Of a DNA stretch of 26,245 bases, positions 271-1,310 are shown piece by piece. A program made the position numbers and the translations under genes. The stretch's first letter is position 1. Each line of letters opens with the position of its first letter. The notes under the pieces are model-generated. The model saw nothing but the letters and a program-made list of their open reading frames with translations, ran no database searches and was not told the DNA's origin. Source of the stretch: a virus (lineage: Duplodnaviria; Heunggongvirae; Uroviricota; Caudoviricetes); the IMG/VR virus record IMGVR_UViG_2879731240_000002, one strand, 5' to 3'.

Positions 271-297
271 TTAACCCCTTGTAATTCATCGCCATAA

Positions 298-326
298 TTG
301 ATTTAATTCACAAATAAAACTATAAT
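298..326 (+). promoter_or_regulatory. Putative sigma70 promoter for the methyltransferase gene
   Basis: TTGATT (298-303), 17-bp spacer, TATAAT (321-326), immediately upstream of the ORF. Sequence match only. Confidence 0.3.
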
Positions 327-995
327 ATGGTGAAATTAATGAAAAAAAACACAGATGATGGGGCTAAAATTTACACACCACTTACCCTAAAGCTTTATGA
401 CTGGTGGGTTTTGGGAGTATCAAATCGGCTTGCATGGGGATGTCCTACAAAGGAACACCTTCTTCCACACTTTCTGGAACATTTAGGTAACAACCATCTG
501 GATATTGGTGTTGGAACTGGGTTTTACCTTACTCACGTACCTGAGAGTAGTCTGATATCTTTAATGGATTTGAACGAAGCTAGCCTGAACGCGGCATCTA
601 CAAGGGCTGGGGAATCAAAAATTAAACATAAAATTAGCCATGATGTTTTTGAACCTTATCCTGCGGCGTTACATGGTCAATTTGATTCCATTTCCATGTT
701 TTACCTTCTTCACTGCCTGCCTGGAAATATATCTACAAAAAGCTGTGTAATACGCAATGCGGCGCAGGCCTTAACTGATGATGGAACTCTATACGGAGCC
801 ACAATTCTTGGCGATGGAGTTGTGCACAATAGCTTCGGTCAAAAACTGATGCGCATTTACAATCAGAAAGGCATCTTTTCAAACACAAAAGATTCCGAAG
901 AAGGCTTAACACATATACTCTCAGAGCATTTCGAGAATGTTAAAACCAAGGTTCAAGGTACTGTAGTAATGTTTTCCGCTTCAGGGAAAAAATAG
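327..995 (+). CDS. Class I (Rossmann-fold) SAM-dependent methyltransferase, 222 aa
   Basis: Motif I LDIGVGTGFY and acidic motif II region (SLMDLNE); low GC compared with neighbours. A second in-frame ATG at 339 with a GGTGA Shine-Dalgarno may be the real start. Confidence 0.7.
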   Translation: MVKLMKKNTDDGAKIYTPLTLKLYDWWVLGVSNRLAWGCPTKEHLLPHFLEHLGNNHLDIGVGTGFYLTHVPESSLISLMDLNEASLNAASTRAGESKIKHKISHDVFEPYPAALHGQFDSISMFYLLHCLPGNISTKSCVIRNAAQALTDDGTLYGATILGDGVVHNSFGQKLMRIYNQKGIFSNTKDSEEGLTHILSEHFENVKTKVQGTVVMFSASGKK

Positions 996-1175
996 CATCC
1001 AACCGCAGCACGTTCTTGCTTAAGACGTGCTACGGTTTCCTTTACGATTTGGGGTTGCGACTTTACCTCTATTGATAATGCATTCCGGCAGAACGTTCAA
1101 ATATGAACGTACGATATTTAACTAACCGAAAAACAAAATATAGCACAGGCGAGACATTTACCATCTAAGAAAATA

Positions 1176-1192
1176 GTATCGTTTTTTTACAG
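1176..1192 (+). promoter_or_regulatory. MxiE box (MxiE/IpgC-dependent promoter element) upstream of ipaH
   Basis: GTATCGTTTTTTTACAG is an exact match to the published MxiE-box consensus GTATCGTTTTTTTANAG, about 120 bp upstream of the ipaH ATG in an AT-rich leader. Confidence 0.7.
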
Positions 1193-1310
1193 TTAAATCA
1201 ACATCACTTCCTTAAAATGAAAACAATAAATTTCAATCCTGAAACATTTTATTTCAGCTTATTATTCCCCAGTATCACATTTTATCAGGATATCCTTCTG
1301 CGAGGTTATT

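Follow-up and report, generated by a model that had tools for sequence, protein, structure and literature searches.

The gene at positions 327-995 (+ strand) of IMG/VR record IMGVR_UViG_2879731240_000002, a 26,245-nucleotide stretch of viral DNA (Caudoviricetes) analysed here in full and referred to as the window, encodes a class I S-adenosylmethionine (SAM)-dependent methyltransferase and is followed on the same strand by ipaHe, an ipaH gene of class 3. It is the intact orthologue of the Escherichia coli K-12 DLP12 pseudogene ybcY, an already annotated gene and, as a feature, an ordinary one: a very common item of prophage cargo. The explanation that we favour, with a probability of roughly 0.8 for all its parts together, is that the gene belongs to a lambdoid cargo ('moron') module, acts on a small molecule, is transcribed from its own promoter, and has ipaHe as a neighbour rather than a partner, the pairing being an incidental product of phage recombination.

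The longest open reading frame (ORF) of the gene comprises 222 residues, and its product is identical to RefSeq WP_000239881.1. It belongs to the ybcY family as represented by PHROG 2132 (phrog_2132, E=7.9e-157), with residues 5-222 covering profile positions 1-218 of 218. Four Pfam domains score above their gathering cut-offs, i.e., Methyltransf_12 (37.6 bits, cut-off 30), Methyltransf_23 (28.8 bits, cut-off 27), Methyltransf_25 (27.7 bits, cut-off 27) and Methyltransf_11 (24.6 bits, cut-off 21.2). Motif I reads LDIGVGTG (residues 58-65); Asp59, Gly61, Gly63, Thr64 and Gly65, the ribose-binding Asp81 and the adenine-binding His105-Asp106 are invariant in a family alignment of 28 sequences, and Gly61 and Asp81 are still invariant in a deep alignment of 48 sequences. 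The protein has the seven-stranded α/β fold that defines class I methyltransferases. Its GC content is 40.5% (35% at third codon positions) compared with 49.7% for the whole window, and the initial annotation, made from the sequence alone, was accurate in describing a low-GC class I SAM-dependent methyltransferase.

The real translation start is probably ATG339, which would give a protein of 218 residues, because Met5 is an invariant alignment column, most homologues have 218 residues, and the PHROG profile covers residues 5-222. The promoter at 298-326 described below, if used, would place the transcription start site 3' of ATG327 and therefore again favour ATG339. In K-12 ybcY (b0562), a 2-bp deletion at codon 5 removes this conserved start codon, which accounts for the pseudogene status of that copy. 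The K-12 and window copies otherwise share ~99% DNA identity, the same tfa and tfa' flanks, the promoter element and the position among the cargo, but differ in that the window copy is intact and has a TATAAT -10 element (TATAAC in K-12), and in that the window continues beyond ~1035 with the ipaHe cassette in place of a full-length tfa and stf. At the DNA level the window gene is 100% identical to the copy in enteroinvasive E. coli (EIEC) and represents the commonest E. coli allele, and it differs from the copy in enterotoxigenic E. coli (ETEC) by four synonymous and no non-synonymous substitutions. The ratio of non-synonymous to synonymous substitution rates (dN/dS) against the Citrobacter and Enterobacter homologues is ~0.10, and judged by these substitutions and by the invariant SAM-binding residues, ybcY is under purifying selection.

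The distribution of the gene was surveyed in 5426 complete E. coli genomes at a cut-off of ≥95% nucleotide identity. A ybcY-family gene is present in 3832 of these (71%), at 4877 places, and 14 lambdoid phage records carry the methyltransferase at ≥99% protein identity. The gene order is J - lom - stf - tfa - methyltransferase - tfa' in ETEC, J - lom - tail - methyltransferase - tfa' - α/β hydrolase - ompT - int in phage ev243, and nohD - tfaD' - ybcY' (frameshifted) - tfaX' - appY - ompT in the K-12-type arrangement (DLP12). In the window, tfa' is an 89-residue ORF at 1-270 (- strand) that matches a lambdoid tail-fibre assembly protein over its C-terminal half (Caudo_TAP positions 76-130 of 131; phrog_2341 over its full length); RefSeq annotates it as tfa without the N-terminus, it is the counterpart of K-12 tfaX', and it always accompanies the methyltransferase. 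Flanks made up of tfa and a tfa fragment are seen in K-12 DLP12, ETEC, phage ev243 and EIEC, and it is the right-hand tfa that is replaced by the ipaHe cassette in the window. On the far side of ipaHe, a further tail-fibre-type gene is represented by the 3' part of a DUF4376 gene (3134-3511, - strand; Pfam DUF4376, phrog_1141/7703), which encodes 125 residues, compared with 207 in the intact EIEC gene, and is cut by insertion sequence (IS) elements. The tail-fibre-type character that had been proposed for both flanks is thereby confirmed.

The tfa'-methyltransferase pair is a standard lambdoid-prophage cargo, or moron, module; the methyltransferase gene is always met in the cargo region that follows the tail-fibre genes, and the module has the side-tail-fibre genes to one side and the attachment site to the other. 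It has a promoter-like site supported by systematic evolution of ligands by exponential enrichment (SELEX) in K-12, a deviant GC content, an orientation opposite to that of the tail genes, and a 3' hairpin without a clear U-tract. With these putative elements it resembles lambdoid morons and lysogenic-conversion cargo such as lom, bor and ompT, which are likewise single genes of deviant GC content with their own promoter and a 3' hairpin, set against the late operon; the methyltransferase gene also shares their location between the tail-fibre genes and the attachment site beside other cargo (ompT and the α/β hydrolase in ev243, ipaH here). Unlike these, the methyltransferase is a cytoplasmic enzyme and not a surface protein or secreted effector. 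T3SS (type III secretion system) effector loci in prophages of enterohaemorrhagic E. coli constitute comparable tail-fibre-distal cargo.

The family as a whole comprises ~200 cluster representatives (50% identity) at E<1e-30. The tfa flanks occur only at near-identical copies in Escherichia and Shigella (≥ ~99% protein identity); relatives at 88-90% identity are found in other mobile contexts, i.e., a plasmid-like contig and a dinI-bearing island, and at 50-75% identity the homologues stand alone on the chromosome, as in Salmonella (STM1638), Enterobacter, Yersinia, Erwinia, Proteus, the Pseudomonas syringae group, Xanthomonas, Dyella and Pasteurellaceae. Aspergillus holds one relative, at 45% identity. 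STM1638 and the other gammaproteobacterial homologues resemble the window enzyme in their full-length identity (50-65%), their invariant residues and their stand-alone nature, but they are not phage-borne and lack the tfa flanks. A non-phage context, a possibility that the initial annotation had allowed for, exists for this family; no known housekeeping function goes with it. The literature searched contains no functional study of any family member (ybcY, WP_000239881 or STM1638) and no substrate or phenotype for ybcY, and STM1638 is mentioned there only as a gene flanking that of the small RNA (sRNA) RydC.

The gene neighbourhoods of the homologues were surveyed at 72 loci, with one genome per species. 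In 16-18 Pseudomonas species, the methyltransferase gene forms part of a conserved same-strand array in which it is preceded by a gene for a ~130-residue acidic protein and followed by genes for a crotonase-like protein and then a CorA-like transporter; the crotonase-like (enoyl-CoA hydratase family) call was made by sequence appearance. This array is restricted to the P. syringae group and hints only weakly at acyl or carboxyl substrates. A cluster of short-chain dehydrogenase/reductase (SDR) genes recurs near homologues, probably as a result of paralogy, and esterase or lipase genes neighbour homologues in several genera in a manner that we judged unsystematic. Distant relatives fused to P450 and RCC1 are eukaryotic-looking and uninformative for the present copy. 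In Salmonella enterica, STM1638 (56% identity; locus L004, 8001-8663) is situated between a gene for an ArnT-like PMT_2 glycosyltransferase and cybB, and according to the literature it directly adjoins the sRNA gene rydC, whose product activates cyclopropane fatty-acid synthase. Copies with 100% identity and tfa flanks also appear on short contigs of metagenome-assembled genomes labelled as Firmicutes (Bacillus sp. and Planococcaceae); these are almost certainly due to binning contamination by E. coli prophage DNA.

The methyltransferase gene and tfa' diverge from an AT-rich spacer of 56 bp (271-326, 25% GC) in which the promoter scan placed the promoter-like element TTGATT-17-TATAAT at 298-326 and a weaker one, TTAACC-16-CATAAT, at 271-298; overall, the scan returned no more sites than were obtained with shuffled sequence. 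For K-12, a ybcY site in the divergent ybcY/tfaX spacer, TTGATT-17-TATAAC, is listed by a genomic SELEX study that used the RpoD holoenzyme, and the entry is also flagged for H-NS (PMC3946193). The -10 element ends in T in Shigella, EIEC and the window, which makes it a perfect TATAAT, and in C in ETEC and K-12 (window 321-341). The promoter that the initial annotation had assigned to this cargo gene is thus matched by a listed K-12 site.

The whole window was searched for the MxiE-box consensus GTATCGTTTTTTTANAG with up to three mismatches allowed, and even at this tolerance the box occurs exactly once, as an exact match at 1176-1192, 135 bp 5' of the ipaH ATG (1311). No box is found upstream of the methyltransferase gene; the only one lies 3' of its stop codon, i.e., downstream, and therefore cannot drive its expression. 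The box sequence, GTATCGTTTTTTTACAG, and the 135-bp spacing between box and ATG are those of ipaH_5 in Shigella flexneri 2457T (PMC9769918 Table S2). RNA sequencing of that strain showed ipaH_5 (SF2022) to be upregulated 14.5-fold with Congo red in an MxiE-dependent manner (PMC9769918). No methyltransferase is listed among the MxiE- or Congo-red-dependent genes of this strain, and the word 'methyltransferase' is present in none of the supplementary tables of that study, where duplicated genes map poorly. These sequence and expression data support a position of the methyltransferase gene outside the MxiE/IpgC regulon, and agree with the initial annotation both in assigning the MxiE box to ipaH only and in regarding the methyltransferase as independent of the T3SS regulon.

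The region upstream of ipaHe (1036-1310, + strand) is specific to this gene and has 32% GC; besides the MxiE box it contains a -10-like TAAAAT at 1213-1218. The box is reported to precede the 5' end of the mRNA by 33 bp (PMC3299695), and the transcription start site of ipaHe may lie near 1225. It is possible that the methyltransferase promoter, acting constitutively, reads through the weak hairpin that follows the gene and provides basal, MxiE-independent expression of ipaHe.

The ipaHe gene itself (1311-2954, + strand; ipaH_5/SF2022) is intact and encodes a protein of 547 residues with leucine-rich repeats (LRR) and a NEL E3 ubiquitin ligase domain (Pfam LRR_TTSS and NEL; NCBIfam IpaH_Shig); RefSeq uses the name ipaHe for the EIEC copy. 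The length of 547 residues equals the published figure for ipaH class 3, and the window also agrees exactly with the upstream region of 315 nt that is the modal value for this class in Shigella (PMC9046306), having 315 nt between the methyltransferase stop codon and the ipaH ATG. Among the complete E. coli genomes surveyed, any ipaH is found in only 10, all of them EIEC (78 copies), and the methyltransferase and ipaHe occur together in only nine, again all EIEC, one of which has two copies of the pair. The ybcY gene is thus almost always present without an adjacent ipaH, and the initial annotation's statement that no functional coupling between a methyltransferase and an IpaH ligase is described finds no contradiction here. 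In the EIEC strains CFSAN029787 (locus L002, 21311-22953) and FDAARGOS_944 (locus L014, 8214-9855), the ipaHe gene beside the methyltransferase is annotated as frameshifted, and the methyltransferase gene is intact.

Four chromosomal ipaH loci (ipaHe, ipaHa, ipaH3/Hc and ipaHd) were read for comparison, and only ipaHe adjoins a methyltransferase gene. The upstream neighbour is a dinI-like gene at ipaHd, transposase remnants at ipaHa and the host gene pphA at ipaH3/Hc; our data therefore do not lend support to a conservation of the pairing across ipaH-bearing prophages, which had been suggested as a test of the association. Downstream, a DUF4376 gene follows ipaH at every one of these loci, intact at ipaHe, ipaHd and ipaH3 and as a remnant at ipaHa, where it is followed by tfa and a tail-fibre gene; at ipaHd and ipaH3/Hc it is accompanied by a gene annotated 'tail fiber N-terminal' (stf-N), which has been kept at both. 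With DUF4376 downstream of all classes and the methyltransferase next to ipaHe only, the conserved partner of ipaH is the tail-fibre module. The composition of ipaHe is mosaic, its upstream region and LRR part having 32-39% GC and its NEL part 54%, with a breakpoint near 2006, and over the segment from ~2006 to 3600, which includes the NEL domain, a hairpin and DUF4376, the ipaHd, ipaHa and ipaH3 loci match it at 97-99% identity. From these coinciding breaks in GC content and identity, the variable LRR part, together with its promoter, has the behaviour of a cassette carried by a constant NEL/tail-fibre backbone.

Immediately 3' of the methyltransferase stop codon, at 1003-1035, a hairpin is formed by CCGCAGCACGU...ACGUGCUACGG (RNA fold -23 kcal/mol, z = -2.6). 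It is the right-hand copy of an element of ~45 bp that brackets the ~1-kb tfa'-methyltransferase module; a second, imperfect direct copy, identical over the first 15 nt, is found just left of the tfa' stop codon in S. flexneri (locus L020, 5626-5670, outside the window). Homology to the ipaH-free prophages of ETEC, K-12 and ev243 stops at ~1035, inside the hairpin. At the ipaHd locus, dinI is followed by the hairpin and then by the upstream region of ipaH, and the ~1-kb tfa'-methyltransferase module is missing; the element is also present upstream of ipaH3, where the sequence is common with window positions 996-1192. The hairpin is probably both a weak or bidirectional terminator and a recombination joint; the junction of the two cargo modules is most simply explained by recombination at this shared element. 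An invertible tail-fibre segment was also considered and rejected, as the two tfa copies have the same orientation and there is no neighbouring invertase gene.

The joined block is found in two backbones, namely a lambdoid siphovirus prophage beside btsS and a myovirus prophage beside zinT. The window represents the myovirus-type copy, here beside mtfA and eroded further by IS elements: an IS3-family transposase gene (3654-4688, - strand) and IS1 (4569-5266, + strand) mark insertions that have removed everything between mid-DUF4376 and the gene lying upstream of the tape-measure gene. In E. coli FDAARGOS_944, the myovirus prophage has baseplate and tail-fibre genes that are deleted here. An identical sequence is present in S. 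flexneri SFBU1023.

With respect to enzyme class, the AlphaFold2 model of the methyltransferase (predicted local distance difference test score 89.5) retrieved the bacterial phosphatidylethanolamine N-methyltransferase PmtA (8ys9) as the top Foldseek match, with E=8.9e-12 and a template-modelling (TM) score of 0.60-0.67. Other matches, at E ~1e-10 to 1e-12 and TM ~0.6, include JHAMT, the Plasmodium enzyme PfPMT (several entries), CysG and SgvM. PmtA and PfPMT are phospholipid and phospho-base N-methyltransferases, respectively, and PmtA is also of similar size. Apart from a few lower-ranked tRNA methyltransferases, the fold neighbours act on small molecules or lipids, and no DNA methylase is found among them. 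At the sequence level, both the protein and the family profile retrieved from the PDB weak matches to the core only (JHAMT at 1.8e-5, UbiG) and no close solved relative, and no transmembrane segment is predicted. Most likely, as far as the model allows the fold to be compared, the enzyme belongs with small-molecule methyltransferases and not with DNA methylases. The profile and structure searches called for in the initial annotation accordingly reached ybcY/PHROG 2132 and a small-molecule-type fold, but no named NCBIfam family: RquA scored 16.9 bits (cut-off 175) and CpaM 17.4 bits (cut-off 180), and nothing else in NCBIfam matched, including UbiE/COQ5.

In the alignment of 48 sequences (33-57% identity) the invariant residues, in the numbering of the 218-residue protein, are Tyr20, Gly57, Asp77, His125, Gly153, Asn182 and Asp185, and nearly invariant are Asp21, Trp33, Cys35, His53 and Cys126. 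A sequence of the carboxyl O-methyltransferase BelI was rebuilt from the supplement of PMC11408123, and hhalign aligned it with the family profile over the SAM-binding core with a probability of 97.5%. BelI and CysG have a His-His-Asp metal-binding motif and an Arg22 substrate gate (PMC11408123). The His129-Cys130 pair of the window enzyme (His125-Cys126 in the shorter numbering) aligns with the metal-binding His122-His123 of BelI, such that the second ligand is Cys and not His; the alignment ends before Asp191 and before the N-terminal gate, where the family has the invariant Tyr24 and the nearly invariant Asp25 instead of Arg. The identity to BelI/CysG, JHAMT and UbiG is 18-24% and confined to the SAM-binding core, and, unlike BelI/CysG, the window gene is not surrounded by a biosynthetic gene cluster. 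The likeness to BelI, being one of aligned sequence, may be regarded as a lead but not as a family assignment.

In sum, positions 1-1035 hold a truncated tfa' and, divergent from it across the short AT-rich spacer, an intact ybcY-family methyltransferase gene. We propose that the enzyme is a soluble, stand-alone protein of ~218 residues that most likely passes the methyl group of SAM to a small molecule or lipid-like metabolite; DNA and host proteins are not its expected substrates, and the accepting atom could plausibly be oxygen or another heteroatom. The acceptor pocket may be capped by the conserved N-terminal helix that carries the Tyr-Asp pair, and lined by the invariant His129-Cys130, Asn186 and Asp189. 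Expression would proceed from the gene's own sigma-70 promoter, probably dampened by H-NS and independent of MxiE/IpgC, and the product would serve the lysogen as cargo rather than phage morphogenesis. The adjacency to ipaHe would have arisen by recombination at the short hairpin common to both modules, in the cargo slot that follows the tail-fibre genes, after which the block stf-N / DUF4376 / ipaHe / methyltransferase / tfa' would have stayed together on its way into two or more prophage backbones. More tentatively, ybcY-family proteins could be true lysogenic-conversion enzymes that methylate a specific small molecule or lipid by means of a His-Cys-Asp site related to that of BelI/CysG. If so, the enzyme might, e.g., esterify or detoxify a gut or host-derived metabolite, and the benefit would explain the near-clonal allele in ~70% of E. 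coli and Shigella genomes.

Several points weigh against this proposal. Among the 72 homologue loci, no neighbouring gene is conserved across genera that would suggest a pathway, and some E. coli copies are decayed, as seen from the K-12 frameshift and from truncated clusters, such that the methyltransferase may be dispensable. A His at the position aligned with BelI is common across the methyltransferase superfamily, and the match to BelI does not extend beyond the SAM-binding core. The methyltransferase promoter rests on a consensus match and on in-vitro SELEX with K-12, and to be missing from a differential-expression list is not proof of expression, the more so as duplicated copies can depress read mapping. 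Finally, the + strand from the methyltransferase to ipaH has no predicted intrinsic terminator with a U-tract, and transcriptional read-through into ipaHe is therefore possible.

Of the alternatives to a moron-encoded small-molecule enzyme, the initial annotation had itself raised two, an anti-restriction or modification function and a host-interaction enzyme. Orphan DNA methylases are common as phage cargo, and a SAM-dependent methyltransferase on a prophage might be of this kind, protecting phage or host DNA; the protein, however, contains neither a [DNS]PP[YFW] motif IV nor a PC(Q/K) dipeptide (regular-expression search; a lone ENV at 203 has no partner), its 218 residues leave no room for a target-recognition domain, its fold neighbours are small-molecule enzymes, and its homologues are stand-alone chromosomal genes, one of them in a fungus, with no restriction partner. 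What remains is a single methyltransferase match with the PADLOC defence models, to the methylation-associated defence component mad2 (E=0.0033, 14.3 bits), which reflects generic methyltransferase-domain similarity, and a role in DNA methylation is extremely improbable. A virulence factor coupled to IpaHe, either as a secreted effector resembling NleE/OspZ or as a modifier of IpaHe or its targets, is suggested by the position of the gene directly upstream of ipaHe on the same strand, by the constancy of this arrangement for ipaH class 3 in Shigella (as judged by the modal 315-nt upstream region) and in two prophage backbones, and by the lack of a strong terminator between the two genes. Yet the same allele occurs in 3832 E. 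coli genomes and only 10 have any ipaH, the other three ipaH classes lack the methyltransferase, and the gene has no MxiE box and is not among the MxiE- or Congo-red-dependent genes. Moreover, Pfam returns generic class I methyltransferase domains only, with no NleE/OspZ or effector-like match, the adjacent ipaHe is often frameshifted in EIEC next to an intact methyltransferase gene, and the gene is widespread in bacteria without this T3SS, its relatives at ≤75% identity being ordinary chromosomal genes. We regard such a coupling as highly improbable.

Methylation of a macromolecule other than DNA, either a nucleoside of tRNA or rRNA or else a protein, perhaps one related to the tail fibre or host surface, would be compatible with the tRNA methyltransferases among the fold neighbours, but these matches are no better than those to dozens of small-molecule enzymes, and the best relatives at the sequence level are JHAMT, UbiG and BelI. 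The protein lacks an RNA-binding extension, transcription of the gene runs from its own promoter in the direction opposite to the tail genes, and its homologues at ≤75% identity are not phage-linked, all of which makes a macromolecular substrate unlikely. The gene could also be an unexpressed, functionless hitch-hiker in the Shigella locus, silenced by H-NS and decaying like the IS-ridden prophage remnant around it. The prophage has been degraded by the IS3-family element and IS1, with DUF4376 truncated, the K-12 copy is frameshifted, the K-12 spacer is flagged as H-NS-bound, and the methyltransferase does not feature in the S. flexneri differential-expression lists. On the other hand, the window carries an uninterrupted ORF identical to the commonest E. 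coli allele, no catalytic or SAM-binding residue has been lost, the substitutions relative to the ETEC copy are exclusively synonymous (four) and the family dN/dS is ~0.1, and the -10 element in the window is perfect. A hitch-hiker thus has some likelihood, albeit a minor one.

For Shigella biology, the moron reading gives the methyltransferase little weight, since it is neither a member of the T3SS regulon nor specific to ipaH-bearing phages. The locus rather illustrates how ipaH cassettes are slotted into a tail-fibre-distal prophage cargo site through recombination at a short shared hairpin, and how stf-N / DUF4376 / ipaHe / methyltransferase / tfa', as one complete block, passes between backbones of siphovirus and myovirus type. 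The ybcY gene is one of the most prevalent cargo genes of E. coli prophages and is under purifying selection, and the identity of its substrate would be of some value.

Further genes were noted elsewhere in the window. Between IS1 and the tape-measure gene, a 160-residue ORF (5359-5841, - strand; ~37-39% GC) has an N-terminus resembling a signal peptide or lipoprotein (MIKPFLMTVAILTSCCAQA) and no Pfam match; it is annotated as hypothetical in FDAARGOS_944, and could represent a further moron within the tail operon. Elsewhere, the host's mtfA (Peptidase_M90, 20790-21626) is located between phage-type integrase genes at 19568-20593 and 22477-23226, and a group II intron reverse transcriptase/maturase is encoded at 23891-25414 (- strand).

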